From the NCBI GenBank assembly GCA_017479485.1, contig JAFVCC010000037.1, positions 1 through 61,030 of the forward strand: a DNA stretch of 61,030 nt. Reading direction: 5' to 3'. Shown here in pieces: positions 34,702 through 51,423 of the stretch. Made by a program: the position numbers and the translations under genes. The notes under the pieces were generated by a model. The model had not been told where the DNA came from and did not search any database. It worked only from the letters and a program-made list of their open reading frames with translations. How positions within the stretch are numbered: position 1 is the stretch's first letter; the number at the start of each line of letters is the position of its first letter. Source of the DNA: Bacilli bacterium (GTDB lineage Bacteria > Bacillota_I > Bacilli_A > RFN20 > CAG-826).

Positions 34702-35142
34702 ATGCTTAATGTCATCACCCTCGTCGGTCGCCTGACCCGCGACCCCGAACTTCGTAGGACCAATTCCGGAACCAGCGTGGGAGCCTTCACCATCGCGGTG
34801 GATGACGGAAGAAAAGGCCCGAACGGAGAACGTCAGACCTTGTTTATGGACTGCACCATCTTCGGCAACCAAGCCGACACCCTCACGAAATTCTTCCGCA
34901 AGGGGAATCTCATCGGCGTGTATGGCCGCTTGGTTTCTCGGAAATATACGAACAACCAAGGCGTGAACGTCACCGCTTACTCGGTGAATTGCGACCGCAT
35001 TGAATTCGTGGAATCCGCGGCGAAGATGAACGGCGCGTCTGCCGAAATGCCCATGGACAATGGCTTCTCTCAGGTCAATCCCGTCAGCGAAAAACAGAAC
35101 TTGGACACCATCGACGTCACCGACGATGATCTCCCGTTCTAA
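34702..35142 (+). CDS. ssb: Single-stranded DNA-binding protein
   Basis: LVGRLTRDPELR; C-terminal DDDLPF. Confidence 0.96.
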   Translation: MLNVITLVGRLTRDPELRRTNSGTSVGAFTIAVDDGRKGPNGERQTLFMDCTIFGNQADTLTKFFRKGNLIGVYGRLVSRKYTNNQGVNVTAYSVNCDRIEFVESAAKMNGASAEMPMDNGFSQVNPVSEKQNLDTIDVTDDDLPF

Positions 35143-35165
35143 GCTGACAGAAAGGAACATGTACA

Positions 35166-35390
35166 ATGGCTTTCAAGAAGATGCATTCCCGTCGTAAAGT
35201 TTGCTACTTCACGAAGAACCACATCAAATACATCGATTATAAGGATGTGGAGCTCCTTCAGAGGTTCATCTCTCCCGACGGAAAAATCACCCCGCGTTCC
35301 GCGACCGGCACCAGCGCCAAGTATCAGCGCCAGCTCGCCGTTGCGATCAAAAACGCGCGTTTCATGGGTTTGCTTCCCGAAGTGAAGTAA
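35166..35390 (+). CDS. rpsR: 30S ribosomal protein S18
   Basis: [22 protein letters not shown]; [18 protein letters not shown]. Confidence 0.96.
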
Positions 35391-35407
35391 TCTCTCGCTT
35401 GTTGTCG
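35327..35407 (+). repeat. Copy 1 of 81-bp direct repeat (rpsR 3' end plus downstream site)
   Basis: 78/81 identical to 36336..36416. Confidence 0.95.
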
Positions 35408-35662
35408 TCACACAGAATCGATCGTCCCGTTTTGTACAGAATCGATCGTCCTGACGACGAAGCAACACCACATAGAAAATCGACCTGGCTAACCGCTGGG
35501 TCTTTTCTTTTCGCCCGGCCCCGGTCGTCACACGTCGCGCGGCATCGATTCGAGTGAGCGAAACATAGTCGTCGTCGATTCTGGGTCCCACGGGTTGAAT
35601 ATGGGCCTCGTCGGAGAGAACCGATTTCGTTTTTTTTGGAGAATTGTCGTCGTCATGGAACA
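35403..35662. mobile_element. Empty mini-element 1 (260 bp): L1 35403-35463, R1 35605-35662
   Basis: Starts TGTCGTCA, ends ATGGAACA; no ORF; contains terminator hairpin. Confidence 0.7.
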
Positions 35663-35820
35663 ATTTGCGTGTTAGGACGAGAGCAATTCTCCTCGCTGAA
35701 ACCCAGCTGATTACCCCCAATGCACATCGAGCAATTCATAAATAAGACCGAGCGGTATTTGATTGACGTGCCAGCGAGATAATTGTGATAACATTTGATC
35801 GATAAAGGAGAGCTTCGATA

Positions 35821-36117
35821 ATGAGAGAAGAACTATTGAAAGGCTTGACCGAGGAACAAATCGAGAAAATCAAAAACTGCAAAGGTCAAGAAGAGATTTT
35901 GAAGATCGCTAAAGAAGAAGGTGTTGAACTCACCGATGACCAATTAGAGGCTGTTTCTGGCGGATGTGGCTTTGTTCAACCCACCAATTGCCCAGGATGC
36001 CAATCCACCAATTTCATTACAGCGGATATCAATATGGATGGCAGTAGAGTGACATATTATTGCAATAACTGCCATCGCAAATTTGTCTCTGATTCTGACG
36101 GCCCAAGAATGCTTTAA
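35821..36117 (+). CDS. Nif11/NHLP-like leader-peptide precursor with Cys-rich core
   Basis: ELTDDQLEAVSGG double-glycine leader (48 aa); 50-aa core with CPGC and CNNC; RBS AAGGAG. Confidence 0.75.
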   Translation: MREELLKGLTEEQIEKIKNCKGQEEILKIAKEEGVELTDDQLEAVSGGCGFVQPTNCPGCQSTNFITADINMDGSRVTYYCNNCHRKFVSDSDGPRML

Positions 36118-36335
36118 TCAAAAAGCTCTTTATACGAATAATGCTGGCGTTGTTCGCCCGTTTTCGATGTTTCTTTATATTCTAGTATGCTCCATTCGCG
36201 AGGAGATGTAGTGTTAATTGCTTTTCTCTGTTAACGGAAATCGGTTGCGTCAGCTTGGCGCGGATCCTTTGCTGTAGGGATAATGAAAAATATAGAAAAC
36301 CCTGCAAATCCAATACAAAATTGTGTTGGGCGTCG

Positions 36336-36416
36336 GCGCCAACTCGCCGTTGCGATCAAAAATGCGCGTTTCTTGGGTTTGCTTCCCGAAGTGAAGTAAT
36401 CTCTCGCTTGTTGTCG
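36336..36416 (+). repeat. Copy 2 of rpsR 3' end plus downstream TCTCTCGCTTGT site
   Basis: Encodes [20 protein letters not shown]; differences CAG/CAA, AAC/AAT, ATG/TTG. Confidence 0.95.
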
Positions 36417-36747
36417 CAGGACGAACCCGATTCCCCGATTTAGGACAAACCGGATTCACCTCGACGACGAAGCAAAAAGCGAATTAGACCGTCCATCGTT
36501 GGGCGGTTTTTTCATGCTCGTTCGCCCCTCGTCCTGGATCTATTTGAAACCATCGACGTCGAAGCTGCTTTATATACTTGTATATAACTCGTTCTGGCTA
36601 GCCCCGGGCGTCCCACGTCGAGCAATCGTCCTTCTGGCTGGCAAATTGTTAGCCGTCGTCGAAATCGCGTCACATGGCTCGAATATGGGCTTCGTCGGAG
36701 AGAACGAACTTCGTACTTTGCAGGAGAATGGTCGTCGTCATGGGACA
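36412..36747. mobile_element. Empty mini-element 3 (336 bp): L3 36412-36473, R3 36689-36747
   Basis: TGTCGCAGGAC...GTCATGGGACA; internal terminator and palindromes. Confidence 0.75.
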
Positions 36748-36810
36748 TGTGTTGTGTCAGGACAAGAGCAATTCTCTCCAACGAGACGAAGCTGATTCTC
36801 CCCGAAGCAC

Positions 36811-36852
36811 GAAGCAACAAATCAACAGGACCGTCCATCGCTGGGTGGTTTT
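36811..36852 (+). repeat. Terminator-like repeat M2, copy upstream of antiporter
   Basis: GAAGCAACAAATCAACAGGACCGTCC (26 bp) identical to 38222..38247, then hairpin and T tract. Confidence 0.85.
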
Positions 36853-37005
36853 CTTATGTTTCTCCTCTTGCTAGTAGTATAATTGGCTCGGGAATGATGT
36901 CTCCCATCTAGAAATAGAGAACCGCAATGAAGTGCTGATGACGTCTATGACTTGTTTTGTCATAGAAATCAGCGCTTTTGTTTCTATGGCAGATGGGGGG
37001 TATCG

Positions 37006-38196
37006 ATGAATATATTTCTGTCTTTGTTTATTATTTTTGGTGGTGGGATCCTCGGTGGGTTTTTATTTGAGAAGATCAAACTCCCCAAACTGGTGTGGTA
37101 TATCATTCTCGGGATTCTTATTGGACCATCTTTGTTCAATATCGTTGATGAAACGTTGCTGTCGGTTTCGTCTCATCTAAGGCAAATCGCTTTGGTCATC
37201 ATATTGACCAGGTCAGGCCTATCTTTGGACATTAAGAACCTAAAGAAAATAGGGCGACCTGCGATATTGATGTGCTTTTTACCCGCTTGTTTTGAAATTG
37301 CGGGCATCACGATATTTGGCCCAATGCTCCTCGGGATATCCTATTTCGAAGCCTTGCTTCTTGGCTCGGTCTTGGCGGCCGTTTCGCCGGCGGTAGTGGT
37401 TCCGAGAATGATTCGCCTAATGGAAGAAGGATATGGAAAAGAACACTGCGTGCCCGAACTTGTGATGGCGGGGGCATCTTGTGACGACATCTTTGTAATC
37501 GTCCTTTTCTATTCGTTCAAGAATCTGGTCGCAACGTCCACCTTTGACGCTTGGAGCGTCGGGCAAATCCCCATTTCGATCGTCTCCGGTGTCATTTTGG
37601 GCATCGGAGTAGGCTTCTTGATGGTTTTAGCCATTCGATACATGAAACTAAATAGAATCGTCCATGTCATTTTGATGCTCGGTCTCTCCTTCGGGATGCT
37701 CGCCCTCGAGAATGCCTTGAAACCGTATTTCAGCGTTTCGTCTCTATTAGCCATCATCGTCATGGCATTTGTGGTGGGCGTCTTTAAAAAAGAGGAAGCG
37801 AAGGAGATGCAGAAATCCTATAACGGCTTATGGCAAGGTTTTGAAATCCTATTGTTCGCTCTCGTTGGCATTGCGGTCGATGTTCGTTACGCTTTTTCAA
37901 AAGAAGGGGCAATCATCGTTGGGCTGGTTTTCATTGCGTTGGTATTTAGAAGTTTAGGCGTGTTTTGCAGCATAATTGCAACGAAATTCACTTGGAAAGA
38001 AAAACTATATATCGTCATTTCTTATCTCCCTAAGGCGACCGTTCAAGCATCGATTGGGGCGATTGCTTTGTCCGAAGGCCTTGCTTGCGGCACGTTGGTG
38101 CTGACCGCTGCGGTGGTGGCAATATTGATAACCGCTCCATTGGGTGCGATATTGATGGATAACCTGAAAAACAAATTGCTTAAGAGGGAGGCGTAG
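37006..38196 (+). CDS. Cation:proton antiporter (CPA1/NhaP-like)
   Basis: About 12 TM; LGILIGP, ILTRSGL, AAVSPAVVVP, GASCDD, PKATVQA; start set at MNIFLS. Confidence 0.85.
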   Translation: MNIFLSLFIIFGGGILGGFLFEKIKLPKLVWYIILGILIGPSLFNIVDETLLSVSSHLRQIALVIILTRSGLSLDIKNLKKIGRPAILMCFLPACFEIAGITIFGPMLLGISYFEALLLGSVLAAVSPAVVVPRMIRLMEEGYGKEHCVPELVMAGASCDDIFVIVLFYSFKNLVATSTFDAWSVGQIPISIVSGVILGIGVGFLMVLAIRYMKLNRIVHVILMLGLSFGMLALENALKPYFSVSSLLAIIVMAFVVGVFKKEEAKEMQKSYNGLWQGFEILLFALVGIAVDVRYAFSKEGAIIVGLVFIALVFRSLGVFCSIIATKFTWKEKLYIVISYLPKATVQASIGAIALSEGLACGTLVLTAAVVAILITAPLGAILMDNLKNKLLKREA

Positions 38197-38221
38197 TGAA
38201 CTTCGACTCTTTTATAGGCAA

Positions 38222-38265
38222 GAAGCAACAAATCAACAGGACCGTCCGTTTTTGAGCGGTTTTTT
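38222..38265 (+). repeat. Terminator-like repeat M2, copy downstream of antiporter
   Basis: 26-bp identity with 36811..36836. Confidence 0.85.
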
Positions 38266-38656
38266 CATGTCCGTCCCTCGTCTCGGACCTATTAGGAACC
38301 ATCGACGTCGAAGCTACTTTATATATTTGTATATAACGCGTTCTGGCTAGCCCCGGTCGGTCCACGTCGCGCGATCGTCCTTGTGGCTGGCAAATTGTTA
38401 GGCGTCGTCCGAATCGCGTCCTATGGCTCGAATATGGGCTTCGTCGGAGAGAGCGAAGTTCGTCCTTTCGGAGAGAATGGGCGTCGTCATGGGACACTTG
38501 TTGTCGCAGGACGAACCCGATTCCCCGATTTAGGACAAACCGGATTCACCCCGACGACGAAGCAACCCAGTCACTCGGCATCGGGAAAGAAGTCCACGGA
38601 TCGTGGCAACTCAAATTGAGATTAAGCCGTCCTTAATAATTGGGCGGTTTTCTCTT

Positions 38657-39448
38657 TTAGGACCCCGTGGATTCGTAACGCCTAGCGCATAATGTCCAAA
38701 TCAGCGTGGCGAGCGTGAAGAAGGCGATGGCTACCCCAACGATGATTAAGCTGAGCAAGTAGGGGTTATAGCTTCCATACAACAACGTATCGACCGGCAA
38801 AGAGATAAAGAGCCCAAAGGGGAAGATGAAAATCAGGATAAAGCGGACTGCAGCAGGGAAGATGGCAATGGGGTATTTAGCGTAGATGGTGAAGTTGTAG
38901 ACAATCTGAAGGAGCGGTCCGCTGCGCTTGAAGATAAACGCAAGCGAAGATAACGCGACTTTGAACGAGGTGATGATCAACGCGCCGAATATCGCGCCGA
39001 TAATCAAGACGAACACCGCCCCAAAGGTGACGGATACTTGCAGGTTCAAACCACAGATGACGATCATCGTTACGCCGACGATCACCTCGCCAAAGCCGTC
39101 GGGTTGGAACGTCTCCGCGAACATTTGGAAAATGACGGGGACGGGTCGCAGGAAGTGGCGGTCCATATCGCCAAGTTGAACGCGCCGATACGCCACCAAC
39201 CAGAATTCGTCGCTGAAGAGGTGATCAATGGCAATCGGAAGCATCGAAAAGCCGTAGAAGAAGCCGACTTCCGCGGGGGTATAGCCTTTTAATGAAGGGA
39301 TGACCTGCAAAATGAAGAAAATGGAACATAACGCGCAGGCGTTGGAAATCAAAAAGGAAAGGATGGAAATGACCGCGTCCTTCTTGTATTCGAGGCGGGA
39401 CAGCATGCTGCGCTTGATGCAGGTGAAATAGAGTTTGACGTACCGCAT
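38657..39448 (-). CDS. ABC-2 family permease (DUF990-like)
   Basis: Multi-TM; GDMDRHFLRPVP, AKYPIAIFP. Confidence 0.85.
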   Translation of the reverse strand: MRYVKLYFTCIKRSMLSRLEYKKDAVISILSFLISNACALCSIFFILQVIPSLKGYTPAEVGFFYGFSMLPIAIDHLFSDEFWLVAYRRVQLGDMDRHFLRPVPVIFQMFAETFQPDGFGEVIVGVTMIVICGLNLQVSVTFGAVFVLIIGAIFGALIITSFKVALSSLAFIFKRSGPLLQIVYNFTIYAKYPIAIFPAAVRFILIFIFPFGLFISLPVDTLLYGSYNPYLLSLIIVGVAIAFFTLATLIWTLCARRYESTGS

Positions 39449-39449
39449 G

Positions 39450-40289
39450 CTATCCTCCCTGCACCGTCACGAGTTTTATCGCGTGTTTGAAAAGTAATTT
39501 GCCGAGTAGTTCCAACGCAACGAGCCACGCCAACGCAATCAAAATCACCTTGGCGCATTCGAGGTAGTCGTATTTCATCATCAGAATCAAAACGGGGTTT
39601 TGGCTCATTCCCGCGAAGGGCATGTAGCTGACGATTTCGCGGAAGACGCCCGGAAAGAAAGCGATGGGAAGCAGCGTGCCCGACAAAAAGGAAACCACGG
39701 TTGTCTTCAAGGCGTTAAGGCCCCACGCCGCGGTGGTGTAGAAGCAGAGAATGCCGAAAATGTAGGAGATGGCCCCGTTTAATAAGCAAGCGAGGACGCT
39801 GGCGACTAAGAACAAGGCAAAATGAGCGATGAAATCCCACGCCGAAATCACGGGCAAATATCCGATGCCGATCAATACGCCGAGACTTCCGGCATAAAGA
39901 GGGAGGCCAAAGACGACCGCCATCATCAGGAAGGCCCCAAGGTTCGATGCGATGAACTTGCCTCGATAGGAAATCGGTTTAATCACGAAATTGCCGATCG
40001 TCCCCTCGCGCACATCGCGATTGATGAACCATAATGTGTCGTCATTGAAGGTGATAAACGTGAATATCGTCGTTAAGACGACATAGACGACCATTTCTTT
40101 GTAGGTGAATCCGTTGATGGAGGAATCGATTCCGCCTTCGCTGCTTTGGTAAACCGCGAGCCATAAGAAGACGAGACAGGCGACTTCAAAGACGGTCACG
40201 ATGGCCCAAGTGAGGATGTTAAAGCGATAGGCCATCATGTCCATGGCCGCCGCGCGGGCAAAGGGCTTATATTTTCTTAGCCTTCGCAT
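39450..40289 (-). CDS. ABC-2 family permease
   Basis: Multi-TM; DVREGTIGNFVIKP, FLSGTLLPIAFFP. Confidence 0.85.
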   Translation of the reverse strand: MRRLRKYKPFARAAAMDMMAYRFNILTWAIVTVFEVACLVFLWLAVYQSSEGGIDSSINGFTYKEMVVYVVLTTIFTFITFNDDTLWFINRDVREGTIGNFVIKPISYRGKFIASNLGAFLMMAVVFGLPLYAGSLGVLIGIGYLPVISAWDFIAHFALFLVASVLACLLNGAISYIFGILCFYTTAAWGLNALKTTVVSFLSGTLLPIAFFPGVFREIVSYMPFAGMSQNPVLILMMKYDYLECAKVILIALAWLVALELLGKLLFKHAIKLVTVQGG

Positions 40290-41277
40290 GCTCTTCCTCC
40301 TGTTGAGAGAGAATCTTCTTCACCACGTCTTCGATGGAAATGTCCGCAATTCTCATGTCAATTGCGTGATATTGGGAAAAAGCGTATTGGATGACTTGTT
40401 CGAGCACGGCCTTATCGGCGTCAAAGGAAAGGATGACTTTATCTTCGTCCACGGTCATCGTGACCTCGTCGGAAAAAGGTTTGACCGCATTAGGGTCGAC
40501 GATTGGTGGGACGGTCAACGTTAAGGTTTTGATGTTGCCAAAGCGTCGCTTTATATCTCCTAACGGACCATCATAGATGATTGATCCTTTCTCAATCATG
40601 ATGATGCGAGAGCAAAGGTTTTCGATATCCGCCATGTCATGGGTGGTGAGGACGACGGTGGTGTGGTATTTCGCGTTTAATGCATGGATGGCGTTGCGGA
40701 TTTTGTCTTTGACGAGGACGTCCATGCCAATGGTGGGTTCGTCGAGGAAGAGAATCTTAGGATTGTGGAGCATCGACGCGGCGAGGTCGGCGCGCATTCT
40801 TTGGCCTAAGGAAAGGGTGCGGACAGGTTGATTCATAAATTCATCGATACCCAGGACGGAGGATAAAAAGGTAATTCGCTCTTCGTAATCGGAATCGCTG
40901 ACTTGATAGATTTCTTTGAGAACCTTGAAGGACTCCACCAAAGGGATGTCCCACCATAATTGGGACTTTTGTCCGAAAACGACGCCGATGTCTTTGGCGA
41001 CGATGCGACGCTTAAGATAAGGTTCTTTCCCATCGACGAGGACTTTTCCGGATGTAGGCGTGAGGATGCCACACATCATTTTGATGGTCGTGGATTTGCC
41101 CGCGCCGTTAGAACCGATATAGCCGACAATCTCGCCTTCGGGGATATCGAAAGAAACATCATCGACGGCGCGAGTCTCCGTGTACTTACGGGAAAACAGC
41201 GTAGAAAGCATTCCAATAAGGCCTTTGCCTCTTATTGGCTTACGAAAAACTTTTACGAGGTTTTGGACTTGAATCAT
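40267..41277 (-). CDS. ABC exporter ATPase
   Basis: GSNGAGKS, VVFGQKSQLWWD, LSLGQRMR, LDEPTIGMD; start set at MIQVQN. Confidence 0.9.
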   Translation of the reverse strand: MIQVQNLVKVFRKPIRGKGLIGMLSTLFSRKYTETRAVDDVSFDIPEGEIVGYIGSNGAGKSTTIKMMCGILTPTSGKVLVDGKEPYLKRRIVAKDIGVVFGQKSQLWWDIPLVESFKVLKEIYQVSDSDYEERITFLSSVLGIDEFMNQPVRTLSLGQRMRADLAASMLHNPKILFLDEPTIGMDVLVKDKIRNAIHALNAKYHTTVVLTTHDMADIENLCSRIIMIEKGSIIYDGPLGDIKRRFGNIKTLTLTVPPIVDPNAVKPFSDEVTMTVDEDKVILSFDADKAVLEQVIQYAFSQYHAIDMRIADISIEDVVKKILSQQEEEHAKAKKI

Positions 41278-41565
41278 GGTGGGGTGCTCTTTGGTCGCTT
41301 CATTATACCTTATCAACGGAACAAGATAGAGCTTAGTCGGAGAGAGCGAAGTTCGTCCTTTCGGAGAGAATAGGCGTCGCCATGGGACAGTTGTTGTTGT
41401 GCCAGGACGAGAACAATTCTCCAAGATAATACGAAGAACGTTCTCCCCGAGACACGAAGCAAAAGCGAATTAGACCGTCCCTCTGAGCGGCTTTTTATGC
41501 TTTGGATATGTGGATTATCAATCACAAATCGAAGATAATTAACATGGTTAAGGAGGCTAAATAAA

Positions 41566-42555
41566 ATGAAAAACGAAATACTGATTTATAACCTTCCTGA
41601 TGGCGGGTCCAATGTCGAAGTGTACCTAAACGAAGACGATATTTGGATGACTCAATTAAGCTTGGCCGATATGTTTCAAACGTCAAAAGCCAACATTACG
41701 ATGCATATCCAAAACATATATAAAGAGGGCGAACTTCAGGAAGATCGAACTAGTAAGTGGGGCTTACTACTTCGAGACGAGGGAACGAGGGCCGTAAGAA
41801 GAAAAACCAAACTCTATAATCTCAAAATGATTATTGCGATTGGCTTCCGCACCAAAAGTTCCACCGCGACCGCCTTTCGCGTTTGGGCGAATAATATCCT
41901 CCAACAATACATGGTAAAGGGTTTTGCCATCGATGATAAACGTCTTGAGGACCCAACGAAGTTCGGAAGAGATTATTTTGATGAACTCTATCTTAGAATC
42001 AGGGCAATCCGCGCATCGGAAAAACGTTTTTACCAGAAAGTCTTGGATATTTATTCAACAAGCGTTGATTACAACAAAAACGATGAGCAGACCCTGCTCT
42101 TCTTCAAAACCGTCCAAAACAAATTACATTACGCTATTTCAGGCGAGACGGCGGCGGAACTCATTTATCATCGGGCAGATGCCTCAAAGGATAACATGGG
42201 TTTAACGACTTGGTGGGGCGAGCACGTTCAAAAAAGTGACGTGACGATTGCCAAAAACTATTTGTCCCAAGAAGAAATAGACTCATTGAACCAAATCGTG
42301 AACATGTATTTGGATCATGCGGAAAGAATGGCTCAGTCCAATATCCCGATGCACATGAGCGATTGGATTAACGTCCTGGACGAATTCTTGAAGTTCGAAC
42401 GCGCGGATATTCTTGTGGGGGCTGGGAAAATCTCCCATGCACTAGCGGAACAAAAAGCTCATAAGGAATATGAGAAGTTCGATGCTTCTCGCCAAATTGC
42501 GATGACAGCAAACCTTGATAAAGACCTTTTGGACGTCCTTAAGAAAAAGAAATAA
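41566..42555 (+). CDS. RhuM-family (virulence RhuM) DNA-binding protein
   Basis: IWMTQLSLADMF, IIAIGFR, FRVWA, YMVKGFAIDD, FFKTVQNKLHYA, IAKNYL. Confidence 0.85.
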   Translation: MKNEILIYNLPDGGSNVEVYLNEDDIWMTQLSLADMFQTSKANITMHIQNIYKEGELQEDRTSKWGLLLRDEGTRAVRRKTKLYNLKMIIAIGFRTKSSTATAFRVWANNILQQYMVKGFAIDDKRLEDPTKFGRDYFDELYLRIRAIRASEKRFYQKVLDIYSTSVDYNKNDEQTLLFFKTVQNKLHYAISGETAAELIYHRADASKDNMGLTTWWGEHVQKSDVTIAKNYLSQEEIDSLNQIVNMYLDHAERMAQSNIPMHMSDWINVLDEFLKFERADILVGAGKISHALAEQKAHKEYEKFDASRQIAMTANLDKDLLDVLKKKK

Positions 42556-42560
42556 TCACT

Positions 42561-43259
42561 ATGGATAAGAGAGAGTTAGGGCAAAGACTCAGAGCAATTC
42601 GAAAAAGGAGGGGTTACTCTCAACAGACACTCGCCGAAATGATGGGCTATAAAGATCGTTCCACGCTGGCAAAGGTAGAAAACGGCATAAACGACATAAC
42701 CATTGAAACTTTATATCGATACGCGGATGTTTTAGAAACTGACGTGGAAGAACTTCTCGGGATTAAGAAATCCAGAAAGATAATCCAGAATTGCAAGGTT
42801 TTTAGCTTTGAAACAGAAAAGATTAAAGTAGCGATTCGCGAAATCGAAAAGAAGGATTACCCTGCTGTGGCCTTTATCTGGCGCGAGGTTTTAGATGTTC
42901 CTACAACGGATGATGATTTGAAGAAAACCTATGAGAAGATGAGAGGTGATGACCGTTATCATACGCTGATTGCCGAAGTTGACGGAGAAGCAGTGGGGCT
43001 GGTGACGACGGTATTTAGTTACGCGGTCGGCCATCCCAACGGATATGTCAAAATCAACGGCCTTGGAGTGCGGCAAGAGTATCGACGCAAAGGAATCGGG
43101 AAAGCGTTGCTCGAGGCCGCGGAGCGGGTTGCTATCGACAGCGGCGCCCCATATATCGCTCTTGCGTCTGGCTTTGCTCGCGAAGAGGCACATGCTTTTT
43201 ATGAGGACAGCGGATATCAAAAGACGTCCTATTGGTTTAGAAAGAGATTAAATAAATAA
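42561..43259 (+). CDS. XRE HTH fused to GNAT acetyltransferase
   Basis: SQQTLAEMMGYKDRSTLAKVE; RRKGIGKALL acetyl-CoA motif. Confidence 0.85.
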   Translation: MDKRELGQRLRAIRKRRGYSQQTLAEMMGYKDRSTLAKVENGINDITIETLYRYADVLETDVEELLGIKKSRKIIQNCKVFSFETEKIKVAIREIEKKDYPAVAFIWREVLDVPTTDDDLKKTYEKMRGDDRYHTLIAEVDGEAVGLVTTVFSYAVGHPNGYVKINGLGVRQEYRRKGIGKALLEAAERVAIDSGAPYIALASGFAREEAHAFYEDSGYQKTSYWFRKRLNK

Positions 43260-43469
43260 TCGGCCGCGTCGGGCGATATCGATTCAAGCGAGTGAATTAT
43301 AGCATCTGTCGATTCTGGGCCACACGGGTCGAACATGGGCCCCGTCGGAGAGAGCGGAGTTTGTTCTTTTTCCGAAGAATTGGCGTCGTCATGGGAAATC
43401 TGTAAATAGTCGCTAATATATTATCAAATAACATTGGATATATAGGTAAAAATGCTAAAATATTAGCGT

Positions 43470-43760
43470 ATGGAAGAAGAAGCATTGCAATTTGTCACTT
43501 ACTATGAAAAGCAATTAGAAATTGCGAAACGTTTTATCGTTATTAGAAAGAGTAAAAAGGTATCACAACAGAGATTATCTGTTCTTTCTGGTGTGTCGTA
43601 TGCATCCATCCGAAGATTTGAAAAAACGGGTGATATATCTTTGGCATCATTAGTTAAACTTGCCTTAGCGTTACAACTATATGATGACTTGGATAATTTG
43701 TTTAAAAATCATCTGACTTATAAATCCATTGAGGAAATAATTAATGATCAGAAAGATTGA
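43470..43760 (+). CDS. XRE HTH antitoxin (HipB-like)
   Basis: SQQRLSVLSGVSYASIRRFE; overlaps hipA start. Confidence 0.8.
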   Translation: MEEEALQFVTYYEKQLEIAKRFIVIRKSKKVSQQRLSVLSGVSYASIRRFEKTGDISLASLVKLALALQLYDDLDNLFKNHLTYKSIEEIINDQKD

Positions 43761-44835
43761 GGTTTTTGCCAGCAAAATTAAAGTAGGCACCCTTGCTTTA
43801 ACAAACGATAATAGAGTGGCTTTTCAATATACAGATGAATGGGTAGAAAAAGGATTCTCGATTAACCCATTTAAACTCCCTTTATCGAAGCAACTTTTTT
43901 ATGCAACATCACCGCATTTTAAAGGTCTTTTTGGAGTTTTCGCAGATTCTTTACCAGATAGTTATGGCGAATTATTGTTGGACCGCTATTTGAAAAGAAA
44001 GAATATAAATATTAGTGACTTAACGTGTCTAGATAGACTTGCTTATGTCGGTTGTTCAGGGATGGGGTTATTGGAATATATACCTGATTTCAGTGAAGAT
44101 ACTGATAGAAGCAATATTGATTTTGATGCTGTTCAAAAAGATTGCATCGACCTATTAGATTCAAAAAAAGTCGATAACATTACTAATCTTTTTTCCTTGG
44201 GCGGATCTAGTGGCGGCGCGAGACCGAAATCATTAATTAAATATGATGGCGAGGATTATATTGTTAAGTTCTCTTCCAAATTTGATCCTAAAAACATAGC
44301 TGAACTTGAATTTAAATATATGTCTCTTGCCAAGGAAGCCAGAATTAATATACCTACAATCAAGTTGGTTACTTCTAAATCTGGCAATAAGTATTTTTTG
44401 ATCAAGAGATTTGATCGAGAATCCAACAAGAAGATTCATATGATAAGTGCGGCCGCACTATTAGAAGTCGATTTTAGAGCACCTTGTCTTGATTATAATG
44501 AATTAATAAAACTGACTAGGATAATAACGAGAAATGAAAATGATGTTTTAGAGATGTTCAGAAGAATGGTTTTTAATGTTCTAATTGATAATCAAGATGA
44601 CCACGCTAAAAACTTTTCATTCATCTACGATGGTGTAATCAAAACATATAGGTTATCTCCTGCATATGACATAACTCCGGGCAGGACATATTATGGCGAA
44701 CATACGACATCAGTTAACGGAAAAGGTAAAAATATAACAGACGATGATATGCTTAGGGTCGCGATTAATAACAAAATAAATCTTGCTACCGCACAACGAA
44801 TTATTGAAATGTGTAAATGCATTCTAAATAAATAG
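43744..44835 (+). CDS. hipA: HipA-family kinase toxin
   Basis: FADSLPDSYG, SSGGARPK, IKRFDR, NQDDHAKNFS, LSPAYD; AT-rich DNA. Confidence 0.9.
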   Translation: MIRKIEVFASKIKVGTLALTNDNRVAFQYTDEWVEKGFSINPFKLPLSKQLFYATSPHFKGLFGVFADSLPDSYGELLLDRYLKRKNINISDLTCLDRLAYVGCSGMGLLEYIPDFSEDTDRSNIDFDAVQKDCIDLLDSKKVDNITNLFSLGGSSGGARPKSLIKYDGEDYIVKFSSKFDPKNIAELEFKYMSLAKEARINIPTIKLVTSKSGNKYFLIKRFDRESNKKIHMISAAALLEVDFRAPCLDYNELIKLTRIITRNENDVLEMFRRMVFNVLIDNQDDHAKNFSFIYDGVIKTYRLSPAYDITPGRTYYGEHTTSVNGKGKNITDDDMLRVAINNKINLATAQRIIEMCKCILNK

Positions 44836-44878
44836 GAAACAACAAACCAATAAGACCGTCCATCACTGAGCGATTTTT
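44836..44878 (+). repeat. Terminator-like repeat M2 immediately after hipA stop
   Basis: GAAACAACAAACCAATAAGACCGTCCATCACTGAGCGATTTTT resembles 36811..36852. Confidence 0.7.
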
Positions 44879-44928
44879 AATAACCCCTGTTTGTTGAAAA
44901 AACATAAACAAATTTATATAGATATTTT

Positions 44929-45888
44929 ATGAACGATTCAGCGCCTCTAGCTTTATTGGATGAAAGCCAAATCAAGGACCTTATTTATGAAGTCCGCGGT
45001 CAAAAGGTAATGCTAGATTTTGATTTGGCCAGAATCTATGGTTATGGGACATCTGCTTTTAATCAACAAATTAAGAGGAATTTGGATCGGTTCCCCCAAG
45101 ACTTCTCCTTTCAATTAAGAAAGCAAGAATTTGAGTCCATCTTGCTATCACATTTTGTGACATCAAGTTGGGGCGGGAGAAGGAGTTTGCCGCGCGCATT
45201 TACCGAACAGGGCATATATATGCTCATGACCGTTTTGCATGGCAATCTCGCAATTGAGCAGAGCATAACGCTGATTCGTCTTTTTAGATCCATGAAGGAC
45301 TATATTGCGGAAACACAATCTTTAAGTTCGACCAACGAGGTCCTTGCTTTGACTAACCAAGTACGGGCAAACACGGAGGCTATTGCAAAAGTCGAAGGAA
45401 AACTGGAGATGGTGATGGATAGTTTTATCGACCCGTCCACCTATAAATCCTTCTTAATTATGGATGGCGAGAGAATCGAATCCGACATTGCTTACCAACG
45501 GATTTATTCTATGGCGAAGCAAAGTATTTATTTGATTGACGACTACATCGACGTCAAGACGATCCAGCTGCTCAAACCCTGCGATTCGGGCGTGCGCATC
45601 ATCGTCTTTTCCGACAACAAGGCCAGAAATTCGCTGACCCAGTCGTTCATCGTGGATTTTATTGCCGACCGTCCCGATCTCCATATCGAATTTAAAAAGA
45701 CCAAGGGAAGGTTCCATGACCGCTACGTGATTTTGGATTATCCCGACAAAACCCGGGTCTTCCACTGCGGAGCGTCCTCCAAAGACGGCGGAAACAAAAT
45801 AACAACGATAATGGAAGTGGAGAATCCGGAAGCCTATCTTAATTTGATTTCTGATATTCTCTCAAACGAGGAGCTGATTCTTCCGTGA
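44929..45888 (+). CDS. ORF6N-domain DNA-binding protein with C-terminal extension
   Basis: IYEVRGQKVMLDFDLARIYG, KRNLDRFPQDF, AFTEQGIYML. Confidence 0.85.
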   Translation: MNDSAPLALLDESQIKDLIYEVRGQKVMLDFDLARIYGYGTSAFNQQIKRNLDRFPQDFSFQLRKQEFESILLSHFVTSSWGGRRSLPRAFTEQGIYMLMTVLHGNLAIEQSITLIRLFRSMKDYIAETQSLSSTNEVLALTNQVRANTEAIAKVEGKLEMVMDSFIDPSTYKSFLIMDGERIESDIAYQRIYSMAKQSIYLIDDYIDVKTIQLLKPCDSGVRIIVFSDNKARNSLTQSFIVDFIADRPDLHIEFKKTKGRFHDRYVILDYPDKTRVFHCGASSKDGGNKITTIMEVENPEAYLNLISDILSNEELILP

Positions 45889-46622
45889 AACAATTGAAAG
45901 ACAAGGTCAAAGAAATCCGCAATAGGGAAGGCTTATCCCAAGAAGAAATGGGGAAGAGGGTAGGCTATACCAACCGAGCGAGCATCAACAAAATCGAAAA
46001 CGGCAATGGCGATGTCCCTTTCGATAAGCTGATTGACCTGATAAACGAGTATCTTCTTGAATTAAATGACTTAACGAACAAAGATGTAGTCGAATACTCA
46101 TTACGAGACCTTAAACTGGACGATTGGAAAGAACTGATCGTCGTCTATAAAGACGTCATGTGTGTCCCGTTCTTCAATTCGGATAATTGCCACGGCGATA
46201 TCTTCTATTATTCGACTGAGGAGCGAATGAAGAAGGCAATACGCTTTTGGATAGATTCTACCTCAAAGGGACACTTCGTCCGAAAAGTCATCATAGACAA
46301 CTCGAATAATCGAGCGATTGGAACCATCGAATATTTCATTCGGCAAAACGAGCCGAATTATAATGACGTCATTCTCCTTCGAGTAGATGTGCATCATTAC
46401 TATGAACAAAAGAAGGCACTCGTGAAGATCTTTAGGATCGCAATAAAAGAAGCCTTTTCCGCTTTTGGGAGGCTGCCGTTATTGACGAAAGGGTGGAGCT
46501 ATGCCGTGGAACGAAAAGAAGCTTTGTCCTTCTTGGGCTTCAAAGAGTGTAGCGAACCGCTCATTGGTCACGAAAACGAGTCGTTTCAACACTATTGGCT
46601 GGTCCAAAACAAAGACGTGTGA
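45885..46622 (+). CDS. XRE HTH fused to a GNAT-like domain
   Basis: SQEEMGKRVGYTNRASINKIE; C-terminal fold assignment weaker. Confidence 0.65.
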   Translation: MKQLKDKVKEIRNREGLSQEEMGKRVGYTNRASINKIENGNGDVPFDKLIDLINEYLLELNDLTNKDVVEYSLRDLKLDDWKELIVVYKDVMCVPFFNSDNCHGDIFYYSTEERMKKAIRFWIDSTSKGHFVRKVIIDNSNNRAIGTIEYFIRQNEPNYNDVILLRVDVHHYYEQKKALVKIFRIAIKEAFSAFGRLPLLTKGWSYAVERKEALSFLGFKECSEPLIGHENESFQHYWLVQNKDV

Positions 46623-46711
46623 TTAGCAAACCAATGGCTCGAATATGGGCCTCATCGGAGAGAACAGAGTCTGTTCTTTTTCTGAGAATCGGCGTCGTCA
46701 TGGAACATATT

Positions 46712-46780
46712 TGGAGTAGGACGGTTGTGCTTTGTCTCAGCTGGTAAAACGGTTTTCCTCACAAAGCATTAGTCGAAGCA
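46712..46780. repeat. Degenerate seventh left end
   Basis: TGGAGTAG-GAC start; CGAAGCA near expected offset; follows R7 after 4 bp. Confidence 0.4.
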
Positions 46781-46972
46781 TATGTGGGCGTTATTGAATG
46801 TAAAAGAATGGCATATATCTAAAAAGCCACAATCTAAGAAATTATCCAAAAATTCCTGCAGAACAAGGATATTTTTCAATTCATGACGGGCTTGGATTAC
46901 GTCGCTACAGCCTTCTTCCTCTTGTGTTAAGAATGAGATAAAGCGTCTATAATTTGGGCAAGGAGTTCCCCT

Positions 46973-47929
46973 ATGCCTCATTCTTCTGGCGGTGGGTCAA
47001 GCGGAGGCGGATTCCATTCTGGAAGCTCCTCCAGCGGCGGCCCAAGCTATCGTACCTCATCGCATTATTTCGCGGGATCGACCTGCTATGTTTACTATGG
47101 TCGTAACGGCCGACTTCATACCGTCTATACAAACAATCCAAATAGTCCGACGAAGAAATCCACCATCCTTACTTTCGTGATGCTCGGCGTCATGATGATT
47201 GCGGGTGGACTCGTTGCTTTCTTTGGGGGCTACCATAACCCCAGCAAATTACCAACGGACTATTCGACGAGCATTCTGATTCAAGATGAAACCGACGTTT
47301 TGGATGAGGACGACGAAGCCAAACTACGCAGTACATTCCAGGAATTCTTCACGGTAACGGGCATCTGCCCGAGCGTCCTTGCTGTCGATAACAGCGTGTG
47401 GAACACTCATTACGCCTCTCTTGAAGGCTATGCTTATGATGCCTACCTTGCTCGCTTCAAAGACGAGTCCCATTGGCTCATCGTCTATAGCGACGTCGGT
47501 GGCAGCCACGACAATTGGTCCTTTGAGGGAATGCAAGGAAACGACACCGACAGCATTCTCTTTACTTCCGTGACGGACCGTTTCAATGAATCCCTTTACG
47601 ATAGCCTTAGCGACAAACGGCCCGTCGGCGAATCCATCGAAACGGCATTTCGCCTCATCATGCCGAACATCATGGATAAGAACTATCACTTGGAACTCCC
47701 TCTTTTGATATTCGTTATCGTTTGGGAAGGCGCATTAATCGCCGTGTTGGTTCGCTCGATTCTGCAGTGTTTTCAGAACAAAGGAATGCAAAGCGGAACC
47801 AAAATCGAAGGTCAACCGACCATCAAAAAATGCCCGTTTTGTGATAATGAGTACGCGCAGGGGACGGTTATCCGCTGCCCGAAGTGCGGCGGCATGCTCC
47901 ATTTCGATGCATTCGGGCCGAAAGAATAA
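46973..47929 (+). CDS. Membrane protein with Gly/Ser N-terminus, TPM-like domain and C-terminal zinc ribbon
   Basis: Two TM segments; ILIQDETDVL; CPFC...CPKC. Confidence 0.6.
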   Translation: MPHSSGGGSSGGGFHSGSSSSGGPSYRTSSHYFAGSTCYVYYGRNGRLHTVYTNNPNSPTKKSTILTFVMLGVMMIAGGLVAFFGGYHNPSKLPTDYSTSILIQDETDVLDEDDEAKLRSTFQEFFTVTGICPSVLAVDNSVWNTHYASLEGYAYDAYLARFKDESHWLIVYSDVGGSHDNWSFEGMQGNDTDSILFTSVTDRFNESLYDSLSDKRPVGESIETAFRLIMPNIMDKNYHLELPLLIFVIVWEGALIAVLVRSILQCFQNKGMQSGTKIEGQPTIKKCPFCDNEYAQGTVIRCPKCGGMLHFDAFGPKE

Positions 47930-48088
47930 TCCCCGTATCATGTTGCAGCGCTAGCAATGCTGGCATTAGACAGCTCCATGTGGGCGGTTTTATCTTGGGG
48001 GGCAAGGACAAATCAGGGCGCGGTAGGCCCGCCAATTGAAGGCAGATTGTGCTTTATGTATATAGTGACGTACCCGATAATCAATGAT

Positions 48089-48766
48089 ATGACCGAGATA
48101 CAAGAATACTTATTGTCTCAAGCGGATCCGAAATACCGCGACTTTACCCTGCCTTTAATTCCAAATGTCGACGAAAAGACATTCATCGGCGTACGCTTGC
48201 CGGTTCTTAAGAAATACGCCAAGGAGCTCAACCAAAAACAACGGGAAGAATTCCTCTCTTCGCTTCCTCATCCATATCACGAAGAAAACATATTGCATGC
48301 CTTCCTGCTCTCAAACATGAAGGATTACGACGAATTTCTTCGTTATGTCGATGCCTTCTTACCCTTTGTTACCAATTGGTCCGTATGCGACGCCATCTGC
48401 AATAAATATTTGAATCGGCATAAGGAGTCCTTAATCAAAGAAATTGAGCGGTGGTTAAAAAGCTCCGAGGTCTATCGGGTAAGATACGCGGTCAAATGCT
48501 TGATGAATTACTACCTGGGCGAGGATTTTAAAGAAGAATATATTCAAAAGGTCGCCGAAGTAAAACTTGAAGACTACTACGTCAAAATGATGATTGCTTG
48601 GTACCTCGCGACGGGGTTAGCGAAGAATTACGACCCGTTTATTCGAGCCATTGAAGAACGACGATTTGATTCATCCATCCATAACAAGACAATACAGAAA
48701 GCCGTAGAGTCCTACCGCGTCAGTGAAGAACACAAACAGTATCTAAAGACATTAAAAATCAAATAG
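48089..48766 (+). CDS. DNA alkylation repair protein (AlkD-like)
   Basis: FIGVRLP, YHEE, NWSVCD, YYVKMMIAWYLA; start set at MTEIQE. Confidence 0.8.
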   Translation: MTEIQEYLLSQADPKYRDFTLPLIPNVDEKTFIGVRLPVLKKYAKELNQKQREEFLSSLPHPYHEENILHAFLLSNMKDYDEFLRYVDAFLPFVTNWSVCDAICNKYLNRHKESLIKEIERWLKSSEVYRVRYAVKCLMNYYLGEDFKEEYIQKVAEVKLEDYYVKMMIAWYLATGLAKNYDPFIRAIEERRFDSSIHNKTIQKAVESYRVSEEHKQYLKTLKIK

Positions 48767-48885
48767 GGGATACCTTTGAGCCCGCTTGTTGCATGGGAAG
48801 ATATATTCCTTTATGCGACGCAAAATATGATGGACAAAACTAGAAATCCCGCCAAAAAGCGGCCAAAATACTTTAAATCCAGCTT

Positions 48886-49590
48886 ATGGGAAAACAAAAA
48901 AGCGTTCAAATATTGGTTGATTATCTCGGTTCTGATCTTCCCTCTGAAACCGACCAATATCCCTTAGGGTCCGTTTTTGAACTATCGGTTTTAGCGTGGC
49001 ATCACGAGATGGAGCTCTCATCCATCGCGTTCTTTGACGTAGAAGGCAATGAGCCAGTGAAGCCCAAAGACCTTCAAATCAAGGAGCTGGATCGGAGTTA
49101 CAAAGACCTCTATTGGTGGTATCAGCGCGAAGAGGATTATCAAAGGATCGTTTCCTTCACAGTGACGCAGCCAACTCGCGTCGTCGCCACCTATACACGA
49201 AGCTCGAAGCGCGTGGTTTTAATCATAGACACTAAAGCGCTAGGCAAAGATATCGACTTAAGCGCCTCCTACTTGTATTGTCAGGAAATGACGTATAACA
49301 ATTCGAAATGTCGTTTTGAAGGCGGCCCCCGGTTTTATTTCGATCTTAAGGACGATATGACCTTTGGCCTTGTGGTTTCTGTTGGAACGAACGTGGATAT
49401 GGAACTTGACGGTGCGACTCATCATTGCACTATCCGTAAGAGAATTAGTGCTGGCTGGGATCTTCTGATTTTTGGGACGCTTGATGAAGATGATGGATAT
49501 GGCGACACCATCAAAGGGGAAGGCGAGCACATCTTACTTCAAAACACAGAATCCATAGTGCGTTTCTTACCGCAAGATCAAAAAGACTAA
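48886..49590 (+). CDS. Hypothetical protein
   Basis: 234-aa ORF, no recognised motif. Confidence 0.6.
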   Translation: MGKQKSVQILVDYLGSDLPSETDQYPLGSVFELSVLAWHHEMELSSIAFFDVEGNEPVKPKDLQIKELDRSYKDLYWWYQREEDYQRIVSFTVTQPTRVVATYTRSSKRVVLIIDTKALGKDIDLSASYLYCQEMTYNNSKCRFEGGPRFYFDLKDDMTFGLVVSVGTNVDMELDGATHHCTIRKRISAGWDLLIFGTLDEDDGYGDTIKGEGEHILLQNTESIVRFLPQDQKD

Positions 49591-49663
49591 AATCGATACT
49601 TTTTAGCTCACGCCCCTCTTCTTTTTTCTTGCGCATTGCGCGCGAAGGGTTATTGTTTCGTCT

Positions 49664-50701
49664 ATGGACAATTTTTATCGTAGGGCGCGCTTAGAAGAGA
49701 TCGATCAAATTATGGAGGCGGTCGAGTACTCCCGGGAAGTCTTAAGACTTCAAGGAAATGGGCAGTGGCAAGATGGATATCCCAATCGAGATGACTTCGT
49801 TGAAGACATCAAAAAGCGGCACCTTTATGTCGTGCCGAAAATCGGTGAACCTGATACCGTGGCTGGCGTTATGGCGATGACATATTACGAAGAGCCTTAT
49901 CACCATCTTTATGAAGGCGAGTGGCTCAGTGACCTACCTTACGCAGTCATGCACCGTGTTGCCCTAAAAAAGGAGTTCCAAGGCCAGGGCTATGGAAAAC
50001 TCCTTTTCAAAGCTTTTATCGAACAAGCAAGCAAAGAAGGCTTTCGATCCCTGCGTATCGATACCCATGAAGGGAACGCGGTGATGCGCCATCTTATCGC
50101 GAAAGCGGGTATGTCCTTATGCGGGCGTGTTGTCTTGCCTCCCAATAAAGACCGCATGGTCTTCGAACTTGTCTTGCCCGAAAATGTTGTTACACCGAGG
50201 ATTCTTGAGAATGAGCGGTTCTTTTTCCGTGAATACCAGGAAGAAGACCTATTCTCCTTGCGGCAAATCTACCAAGATTCCGAGAACATGAAATATTTCG
50301 GAGCGCCGTACGACGAGCGGATGATGCGCCGCCTGATGGATTGGACGCAAGAAAACTACCGTAAATACGGATTTGGGTTCTGGGCCATCATCGATAAGCA
50401 TAGCGGTGAGTTCATCGGAGACTGCGGACTATCCTTGCAAAACATCGACGGCGAGCTTTTGCCTGAGATCGGCTATCACATCAACCCAAAATACCATAAC
50501 CAGCATTACGCGACCGACGCAGCTCGGCTCGTCAGGGAATATGGCTTTGCGACATTTGGCTTCAAATCTTTATATGGCTATACCGTTGAAGCCAACCTTC
50601 CTTCCATCAGTGTCATGAAAAATAACGGCATGCATTTTTGGAAGAAATTCGAAAAAGGAGGGGAGATTTACGTGGTTTTTCGCGTAAATCGTGAAGAATA
50701 A
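49664..50701 (+). CDS. Tandem GNAT acetyltransferase
   Basis: QWQDGYP, FQGQGYG; second RimJ-like domain with EIGY and NLPSISVM. Confidence 0.85.
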   Translation: MDNFYRRARLEEIDQIMEAVEYSREVLRLQGNGQWQDGYPNRDDFVEDIKKRHLYVVPKIGEPDTVAGVMAMTYYEEPYHHLYEGEWLSDLPYAVMHRVALKKEFQGQGYGKLLFKAFIEQASKEGFRSLRIDTHEGNAVMRHLIAKAGMSLCGRVVLPPNKDRMVFELVLPENVVTPRILENERFFFREYQEEDLFSLRQIYQDSENMKYFGAPYDERMMRRLMDWTQENYRKYGFGFWAIIDKHSGEFIGDCGLSLQNIDGELLPEIGYHINPKYHNQHYATDAARLVREYGFATFGFKSLYGYTVEANLPSISVMKNNGMHFWKKFEKGGEIYVVFRVNREE

Positions 50702-50703
50702 TC

Positions 50704-51393
50704 ATGGATGACTATGCAAAACTAAAGCAGTTTTGGGACGGTGTGTTTAAAGAAAATGAAGAGACCCAGCCCTTGCAAGGAAAATGGGTTGAAGAAGAAA
50801 AATTCAATCAGGTGATCCGTACCTATGTGAAGCCTGATGGCATGGTTTTGGACTATGGCTGCGGCAGCGGCTGGGGGTTAATGGAAATTGCATTCACGGT
50901 CAAAATCCAGCAGGGTATTGGAATCGACGTCTCACCTAATGGGGTGAAACGGGCCAACGAAGTGGCGGCCGCTTCGGGCCTCTCGAACCTGTCTTTCTAT
51001 TGTGGCGACCAAAACCTCCTTTGTGGTTATCCGGAAATGTTCGACTTCATCTTGTGCGTCAACACTTTGGACGTGGTGCCCGACAACGTTCAAGCCGAGA
51101 TATTGGAGCGCCTTTCTTCAGCGCTGCAGCCTAATGGACATTTATTCGTTGGGCTTAACCCCGACTTTAGCGAAGAAGTTCTGACGGAACGACTTGGCAT
51201 GGCCAAAAACGGTCATTACTTCTATAAGGATGGCGTGCTAAGAGCCAATAAAAAGTCCGTCGAGGAGTGGCGCGAATTGCTTTCAAACTACTTTGTTGTA
51301 GAGGAAAACTTCACATTTAGTCTCAACGAACGCGAGAGACAATACCCGCGCGTGGGCTTTGTGCTTGCGCCGCGCTCGCGCGTCATTGCCTAA
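50704..51393 (+). CDS. Class I SAM-dependent methyltransferase
   Basis: VLDYGCGSG. Confidence 0.85.
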   Translation: MDDYAKLKQFWDGVFKENEETQPLQGKWVEEEKFNQVIRTYVKPDGMVLDYGCGSGWGLMEIAFTVKIQQGIGIDVSPNGVKRANEVAAASGLSNLSFYCGDQNLLCGYPEMFDFILCVNTLDVVPDNVQAEILERLSSALQPNGHLFVGLNPDFSEEVLTERLGMAKNGHYFYKDGVLRANKKSVEEWRELLSNYFVVEENFTFSLNERERQYPRVGFVLAPRSRVIA

Positions 51394-51423
51394 AAAGGGA
51401 AAAGCGATTAGAATTTCGCCCAT

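Follow-up and report, generated by a model that had tools for sequence, protein, structure and literature searches.

Tn7 combines the TnsABC proteins with TnsD; its attachment site, attTn7, lies behind glmS, and the TnsD footprint falls inside the coding end of that gene. Islands of stacked and decayed Tn7-like elements are found behind glmS, and to our knowledge there is no report of a Tn7-type target fragment carried within such a stack. Genomic islands also accrete in tandem at tRNA and tmRNA genes, where each integration leaves a partial gene end that is a possible secondary att site. A further route to layered DNA is homology-facilitated illegitimate recombination during the uptake of foreign DNA, which has been described in Acinetobacter and Streptococcus pneumoniae. 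The literature yielded no paper joining rpsR with Tn7-like elements and none on miniature stacked Tn7-like elements. The rpsR gene is a hub for mobile DNA (PMC8407400): its 3' end is the integration site of pathogenicity islands of the SaPI4 family, whose direct repeats measure 15 bp (PMC8407400; PMC5341023).

The window, a stretch of 61,030 nucleotides, carries a pile of small transposase-less elements behind rpsR and within this pile, about 1 kb downstream of the real gene, a second copy of the rpsR 3' end (rpsR'). The pile shares with Tn7-like elements the TGT...ACA termini with repeated subterminal sites in each end, the 5-bp target duplication and single orientation, an insertion point set at a fixed distance behind a conserved essential gene whose coding end contains the determinant, and the stacking of several elements together with end-only relics. 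It differs in its target, rpsR, and in gene content: TniQ/TnsD (PF06527) is absent from all 58 genus genomes searched, as are matches to the Mu-transposase C-terminal domain (PF09299), for which the control genomes were silent as well. By analogy, insertion behind rpsR would work like the TnsD pathway of Tn7; judged from sequence, the rpsR stack resembles Tn7 at attTn7 in behaviour but not in gene content, and is a candidate member only.

With SaPI4-type islands the locus has in common the target gene end and the gene-end direct repeats that flank inserted DNA. Those islands, however, have a core repeat of 15-18 bp, an adjacent integrase and circular excision, whereas the repeat described here is 81 bp long and imperfect (3 mismatches), no integrase is present, and the inserted units have transposon-type ends and duplications. 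Layered partial target-gene ends within one island, of which the related genome G006 has three layers, recall accretion at tRNA and tmRNA genes, but there an integrase makes the copies at element borders, whereas here the left borders are illegitimate joints inside elements. In homology-facilitated illegitimate recombination, a homologous anchor and an illegitimate joint likewise add foreign DNA and leave short overhangs of foreign or resident sequence; from the structure of the joints, such a process is proposed here for the origin of the fragments.

A second copy of the rpsR 3' end

The rpsR gene closes the operon rpsF-ssb-rpsR, with rpsF and ssb upstream. Positions 36336-36416 are identical to 35327-35407 at 78 of 81 positions (96.3% identity, E = 6e-34), a match first reported in an earlier note made from the letters of the sequence and confirmed here by BLAST and by direct reading. 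The pair is the only one of its kind in the 1.7-Mb assembly (BLAST). Its parts are:

35166-35390, + strand: intact rpsR, encoding ribosomal protein S18 of 74 aa (Pfam Ribosomal_S18, E = 2.6e-25)
35327-35407, + strand: native copy of the 81-bp repeat, comprising rpsR codons 55-74, the stop codon, the 12-bp spacer TCTCTCGCTTGT and TGTCG of the left end L1 (read in the sequence; BLAST)
36336-36399, + strand: the rpsR' fragment, non-coding, corresponding to codons 55-74 and the stop codon, identical to the native copy at 61 of 64 positions
36400-36411, + strand: the 12-bp spacer TCTCTCGCTTGT after rpsR', identical to the spacer after native rpsR

The second copy begins with the third base of codon Q54. 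As the earlier note had it, two of the differences are synonymous (Q56, CAG to CAA; N63, AAC to AAT) and one exchanges Met for Leu (M67, ATG to TTG). The native rpsR tails of the other 51 genus genomes all have Met67, and its replacement by Leu therefore indicates that rpsR' is under no coding constraint; inspection of the open reading frames of the window revealed neither a start codon for rpsR' nor an in-frame ORF containing it. Both copies read TAA-TCTCTCG-CTTGT-TGTCG before diverging into the left ends L1 (TGTCGTCACACAG...) and L3 (TGTCGCAGGACGA...), and because of this common stretch an element end lies at exactly +12 bp from the stop codon in both, which reading of the two copies verified. 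CTTGT, the last 5 bp of the spacer after rpsR', recurs at 38497-38501. The two 81-bp direct repeats enclose a block of 1,009 bp that holds the element E1, the left end L2 and a peptide gene.

Architecture of the stack

From 35403 to 46707 the window consists of a head-to-tail stack of units with TGT...ACA termini:

35403-35662, + strand: E1, a cargo-less element of 260 bp with the variant left end L1 and the standard right end R1
35668-35744, + strand: L2, a left end with the tip CGT for TGT and the junction ATTTG before it
35821-36117, + strand: peptide gene, encoding a 98-aa precursor whose leader is of Nif11 type (GG motif) and whose core is Cys-rich and zinc-ribbon-like
36118-36335, + strand: 218 bp of non-coding DNA, comprising the terminator of the peptide gene and about 150 bp more, ending with GGGCGTCGG at an illegitimate joint with rpsR'
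36412-36747, + strand: E3, a cargo-less element of 336 bp
36753-38496, + strand: E4, with a fluoride riboswitch and a Na+/H+-exchanger-family gene
38502-41389, + strand: E5, with an ABC-2 transporter operon on the minus strand
41398-43400, + strand: E6, with RhuM and XRE-GNAT genes and a mutated right tip (AAA)
43470-44835, + strand: hipB-hipA toxin-antitoxin pair, without element ends of its own (Pfam)
44836-46707, + strand: ORF6N and XRE cargo up to the right end R7, the left end being deleted here

An alignment of 11 ends revealed a grammar common to left and right ends, with TGTnnCAnGACGAnnnnnATTCTCC, a second ACGAAnnnnnTTCTCnCC and then GACGAAGC, and matches to the end profile (TGTnnCAnGACGA...ATTCTCC) occur solely in stacks. 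No transposase or recombinase encoded by the stack units was found with Pfam. E3 and E4, taken as a pair, have CTTGT at either flank, and the left end of E5 together with the CTTGT before it is 99% identical to 36407-36475. E6 is 91% identical to a complete element of G006, a genome in which the ORF6N element is also complete (flipped L017, 4016-5968). The junction 5-mers of the stack (TGTGT, GTTGTTGT, TCTGT, ATTTG) are not all equal.

Loss of ends is frequent in the stacks. L2 has no right-end partner between itself and rpsR', and R7 has no left end; in the Logan contigs L099/L100 the homologue of L2 (L2') likewise has a mutated tip, AGT. Between 43400 and 44900, hipBA is situated between R6, with its mutated tip (...GGGAAA), and the ORF6N element that lacks a left end, a region which exemplifies end loss by deletion within a stack. 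An 11-kb span from L2 to R7, with flanks ATTTG and T-ATTTG that match with a 1-bp offset, had been taken as one outer element with the fragment inside it. This candidate carrier was rejected: it is not one element, since R7 is the right end of the ORF6N element, which has lost its other end here.

Insertion behind rpsR across the genus

The ends of rpsR were collected from all 52 genus genomes possessing the gene, and in 38 of these a TGT-ended element follows at +10 to +14. A left end of the canonical family is present at +11 to +13 from the stop position in 24 genomes, other TGT-started families (TGTTCTCAGG, TGTAGTTTCCCGGG, TGTnnGCGCGCAGG and one more) at +10 to +14 in 14, and no element lies behind rpsR in the other 14. 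Among 61 genomes of the order, the ends occurred in 17 of 37 from the same genus (the window's own counted) and in none of 24 from other genera.

The spacer between gene and element is variable in sequence among species and the element starts are nearly constant in distance; where rpsR has a C-terminal extension, the distance is still counted from the conserved coding sequence. The variability of the spacer places the insertion determinant in the rpsR coding end. The proposal that the recognition sequence resides in the conserved 3' end of rpsR is supported accordingly, with ends 11-14 bp past the stop codon despite differing spacers.

Empty and filled sites could be compared directly. The empty sites of G004 and G030 read TAA-TCTTGATGGGGC-AGATGTG, and the filled site of G033 reads TAA-TCTTGATGGGGC, followed by an element of 336 bp and GGGGC-AGATGTG, with GGGGC on both sides of the element. 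Perfect 5-bp duplications were also found in G022 (CCCGC), at L061 (GATGT), in G009 (ACAAA, around a composite of two elements) and around E3 and E4 of the window (CTTGT); at several loci (L057, L019, L012) the flanks do not match. In two stacks the duplication takes in the first two bases of the tip of the resident element, so the cut position is measured from rpsR and not from the neighbouring element. Transposase-less TGT...ACA elements insert about 12 bp after rpsR, in one orientation and with 5-bp target duplications; they accumulate in head-to-tail piles and move as composites as well. Such insertion amounts to transposition with a 5-bp stagger, steered by a determinant inside the rpsR coding end.

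At least three further TGT-started families are present in other species (TGTTCTCAGGCTCTCGTCC, TGTAGTTTCCCGGGCTCGATTG and TGTnnGCGCGCAGG; L062-L094, L028-L034), with matching empty sites for them in comparisons of G079 with G015 and of G020/G065 with G013/G074. These families suggest a superfamily with one common target.

Search for the mobilising enzyme

The search for an enzyme covered rve, PF09299 and TniQ, with the incompleteness of MAGs and the existence of unbinned plasmids and phages as a caveat. There was no match to rve (PF00665) in the genome of the window; elsewhere in the genus no ORF with an rve match exceeds 520 aa, and the three that were examined proved to be of IS3 type, with no cognate ends nearby. 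The unknown ORFs of the stacks have no transposase match in Pfam or NCBIfam, and the ORFs behind sister-family ends contained nothing suggestive by eye. The right-end pattern is present at 16 loci in public genome contigs and 9 in metagenome contigs, and no transposase-carrying element was recognised among these 16 and 9 loci. All 16 genome loci derive from MAGs of uncultured rumen or gut Bacilli, labelled Erysipelotrichaceae, Bacillales or Ca. Enteromonas. All element copies seen are non-autonomous.

rpsR fragments in other genomes

Four rpsR fragments are known from three species: that of the window at 36336 (64 nt), a first and a second fragment in G006 (64 and 45 nt) and one in G073 (44 nt). 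A protein search recovered isolated rpsR pieces in the window and G006 only, on the contig of rpsR itself, and a nucleotide profile of the last 66 nt of the gene added the two shorter pieces, in G073 and as the second in G006. Neither BLAST nor this profile found further fragments in the genome of the window. All four lie inside stacks on a contig bearing intact rpsR, and each has behind it a left end at the canonical distance, some 40 nt away from the conserved TTCATGG motif. On its left side each fragment abuts the interior of another, truncated element, one without a right end. The lengths of 64, 45 and 44 nt constitute a natural deletion series for the minimal target.

The same parts lead up to the fragment in the window, G006 and L099/L100: first a left end whose tip is mutated (to CGT or AGT), then the peptide gene, then the 218 bp, with an identical joint between GGGCGTCGG and rpsR codon 55 in all of them. 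In G073 the same peptide gene is joined directly to the 44-nt fragment, a form derived from the longer one by deletion across the microhomology TCAAAAA. The second fragment of G006 is independent and lies behind about 110 bp of an E5-type left end, so that the layers of that genome are the intact gene, the second fragment and the first fragment. Comparison of the joints indicates that three of the four fragments have a common origin, as a unit of peptide gene, 218 bp and fragment; the joint of the second G006 fragment differs from the peptide-gene joint, which implies at least two independent fragment origins.

The idea that the fragment travels with element-borne DNA is therefore supported, as it belongs to a conserved module in at least three species. 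In the search for isolated rpsR 3' fragments proposed in the earlier note, the predicted left end at the canonical distance was there in four of four cases, and none of the fragments lay away from native rpsR. A landing pad at loci apart from the native gene, as that note had envisaged, was not borne out, the fragments being found only downstream of native rpsR, an outcome that the note had named as refuting its reading; this is a weak test, because a carrier that homes to rpsR would land there anyway. Metagenome contigs scanned for the joint of the 218 bp with the fragment gave 0 matches.

Origin of the second copy

The explanation that fits best, and in which we place moderate confidence, is that the 81 bp are a fossil attachment site, made up of an old rpsR 3' end and its 12-bp spacer with the stack that had inserted behind. 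Most likely rpsR' was displaced with this old stack by recombination, and it is not a proven self-carried landing pad. DNA from the vicinity of rpsR would have been taken up from another strain or species by recombination, with a first crossover within the conserved rpsF-ssb-rpsR region and a second join that would have been illegitimate or inside a pre-existing rpsR piece. The essential rpsR gene would thereby have been rebuilt from the incoming DNA, and the old 3' end and its stack pushed downstream. The module of L2 end, peptide gene, 218 bp and fragment is common to the window, G006, G073 and other samples; in the window it would have recombined with a native-type locus rpsR-TCTCTCGCTTGT-E3-E4-E5, the outcome being the 1,009-bp block of E1, L2 and peptide gene between two near-identical 81-bp copies.

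This history agrees with the comparison of the window with G006, in which identity is 97% for the peptide ORF, 92% for the 218 bp (with the identical joint), 96% for E4, which in G006 stands directly behind the fragment, and 73-75% for the fragment itself. The rpsR' of the window is 95% identical to its own native copy and has the same spacer, and this native tail is the closest to it of 52 native tails. A duplication left by inter-strain recombination, one of the alternatives offered at the outset, is thus the best fit, given a fragment 95% identical to its own gene and 73-75% identical to that of G006. The G006-type fragment has its best native match among the 52 genomes at 83% (G033), which means that its donor lineage is unsampled.

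The order of parts is also informative. The G006-type arrangement is fragment-TAGGTACCTCT-E4 and that of the window is native-like fragment-TCTCTCGCTTGT-E3-TGTGT-E4. Had E3 simply inserted into a G006-type module, the spacer should be intact and its last 5 bp repeated beyond the element; neither is the case, the right flank of E3 being TGTGT and not CCTCT, and replacement of a patch by homologous recombination fits instead. On this comparison, the fragment and spacer of the window have been overwritten by the host's own rpsR sequence, which agrees with homologous recombination and not with insertion of a unit. The suggestion that the fragment had recruited more units accordingly finds no positive support here, its neighbour E3 having no insertion signature and the patch having been replaced by own-type rpsR sequence. 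In G026 and G073, a cargo-less mini-element and then the same antiporter element are located directly behind intact rpsR, so the stack behind rpsR' can simply be inherited.

Three points weigh against the fossil site. Neither a recombination intermediate nor a polymorphic form was seen among the assembled sequences. The crossover that overwrote the fragment has to fall almost at the left edge of the 64-nt homology, no more than a few bases away, and with a partner of only about 75% identity this would be a poor substrate for RecA, though less so if the partner resembled it more from the start. The unequal junction 5-mers allow only part of the history to be reconstructed. All observations are also compatible with rpsR' as a usable target. 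We infer that rpsR' behaves as a portable patch of homology to rpsR, and it may still be recognisable by the targeting machinery. On this reading, fossil copies of the landing site record how accessory-gene depots are rebuilt: besides transposition unit by unit, recombination with its anchor in the ribosomal operon would pass whole stack heads from one strain or species to another.

Alternative explanations

It had been proposed that rpsR' is a portable landing pad, that is, a functional recognition copy of rpsR borne by an element and bound by the targeting machinery, behind which E3-E6 inserted once it had become a fragment. We regard this as unlikely, although several features speak for it. 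The fragment retains all 64 bp upstream of the insertion point, which may suffice by analogy with the TnsD footprint on glmS and which on the same analogy probably include the whole determinant. The left end behind all four fragments keeps its canonical distance of about 40 nt from TTCATGG, but this distance would be inherited anyway if the fragment was once part of an intact gene. The first element after the fragment varies, being E4 in G006, another in G073 and E3 in the window; against this, the spacers of the three module versions are wholly different, although successive insertions at a single site would have left the spacer unchanged. The duplication of CTTGT around E3 and E4 is perfect, with its left copy in the spacer of the fragment, but the right flank of E3 alone is TGTGT and not CCTCT, and the spacer has been replaced. 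L2 to R7 is not one element, the tip of L2 is mutated in both lineages, no fragment lies outside the stacks behind native rpsR, and the metagenome scan found no module joint.

A narrower claim, that rpsR' is a working mobile attachment site of an undescribed rpsR-homing superfamily with an enzyme not recognisably of Tn7 type, seems more doubtful still. If it held, stacks would grow at internal sites too and whole stacks could be seeded wherever the carrier goes, and a usable rpsR' would be a first example of an attachment site of the target-selector type carried by mobile DNA itself.

As a variant of the fossil explanation, the 1,009-bp block could have entered as a circle, by a single Campbell-type crossover mediated by RecA in the 81-bp homology, and could leave in the same way. 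The direct repeats, at 96% identity, bracket the block exactly, and their homology stops at the divergence of L1 and L3 and at the meeting point of the 218 bp and rpsR. Such looping in and out is nonetheless improbable, since a form without the block was not seen in four independent assemblies and the same three repeat differences are found in strains 1.5% apart. Their retention indicates that the repeats are not often homogenised or recombined.

That the repeats are attL and attR of a tyrosine-recombinase island in the rpsR 3' end, similar to the SaPI4 family, is very improbable. The gene rpsR is a known integrase target (PMC8407400; PMC5341023), and islands of this kind typically end, on the far side, in a partial copy of their target gene. 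Yet between the copies no ORF other than the 98-aa peptide gene is credible as a gene, and every large ORF from 35166 to 53532 has another Pfam assignment or none, with no recombinase among them. Phage_integrase matches were collected from 58 genus genomes, and in those checked for position (G000, G006, G009, G026 and G073) the tyrosine recombinases are located off the rpsR contig. This alternative, also raised in the earlier note, is not supported, since neither the DNA between the repeats nor any array contig contained a recombinase. The G006 fragment is 75% identical to its own gene, unlike an attL/attR pair, and the surrounding units have transposition-type 5-bp duplications of variable sequence.

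An integron-like cassette array was also considered and rejected, as there is no integrase near rpsR and the 5-bp duplications at empty and filled sites vary in sequence. The junctions formed by a right end, 5 bp and a left end are imperfect palindromes.

An assembly artefact, in which the rpsR loci of two strains were chimerically joined, might be feared of a source genome that is a MAG, 62% complete and in 149 contigs, but it can be practically dismissed because an independent metagenome contig of 19.6 kb (L095) and Logan contigs from additional samples and runs, which span 35378-36403, reproduce the same structure. L095 is 98.5% identical over 7,106 bp, has the order rpsR-E1-L2-peptide gene-fragment-E3-E4 and contains the same differences between the copies as the window, so the structure is stable between strains 1.5% diverged. 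All the genomes compared are MAGs, and many of their stacks stop at contig breaks.

Cargo of the rpsR stacks

The rpsR stacks are the main accessory-gene depot of this genus of uncultured rumen and gut Bacilli, with a cargo of toxin-antitoxin pairs, transporters, a fluoride-responsive exporter, RhuM and peptide genes.

The fluoride riboswitch of E4 (36881-36954; Rfam RF01734, 37.4 bits, above the gathering score) is directly 5' of the Na+/H+-exchanger-family gene (36952-38196), and this position upstream of the exchanger gene makes E4 a mobile fluoride-responsive exporter unit. E4 is present at 90-96% identity in G006, G073 and G026. An Rfam scan of 35000-47500 returned the fluoride riboswitch only, and the right arms of the elements, although conserved, match no RNA family. 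These arms (36520-36747, 38269-38496 and relatives) are conserved over about 230 nt, at 75-87% between species, which is far beyond the approximately 60 nt of repeated sites.

Another right end is found in the genome of the window on the 16-kb contig C21 (approximately 12980-14480), where the 5-bp junction CTAAG and a left end follow it, and MNT/HEPN-type cargo then leads to a right end that is truncated. This locus is not adjacent to rpsR on its contig and is either an insertion away from rpsR or a stack piece of a co-assembled strain.

The peptide gene matches Pfam Nif11 with E = 2.5e-4, below the cut-off, and its Nif11-type leader family is multi-copy in the genus, with members on contigs C8, C88, C99, C143 and C32 of the same genome. 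Only the first 60-70 nt of the 218 bp behind it are common to other homologues of the gene. Clusters that combine a radical-SAM/SPASM enzyme with C39-peptidase ABC exporters (L104-L112) contain more distant homologues, and for this reason the copy in the stack is regarded as an orphan precursor. In L102, a group II intron reverse transcriptase (1182-2510; RVT_1, GIIM) directly follows an 85%-identical homologue of the peptide gene and precedes an ABC-2 operon like that of E5.
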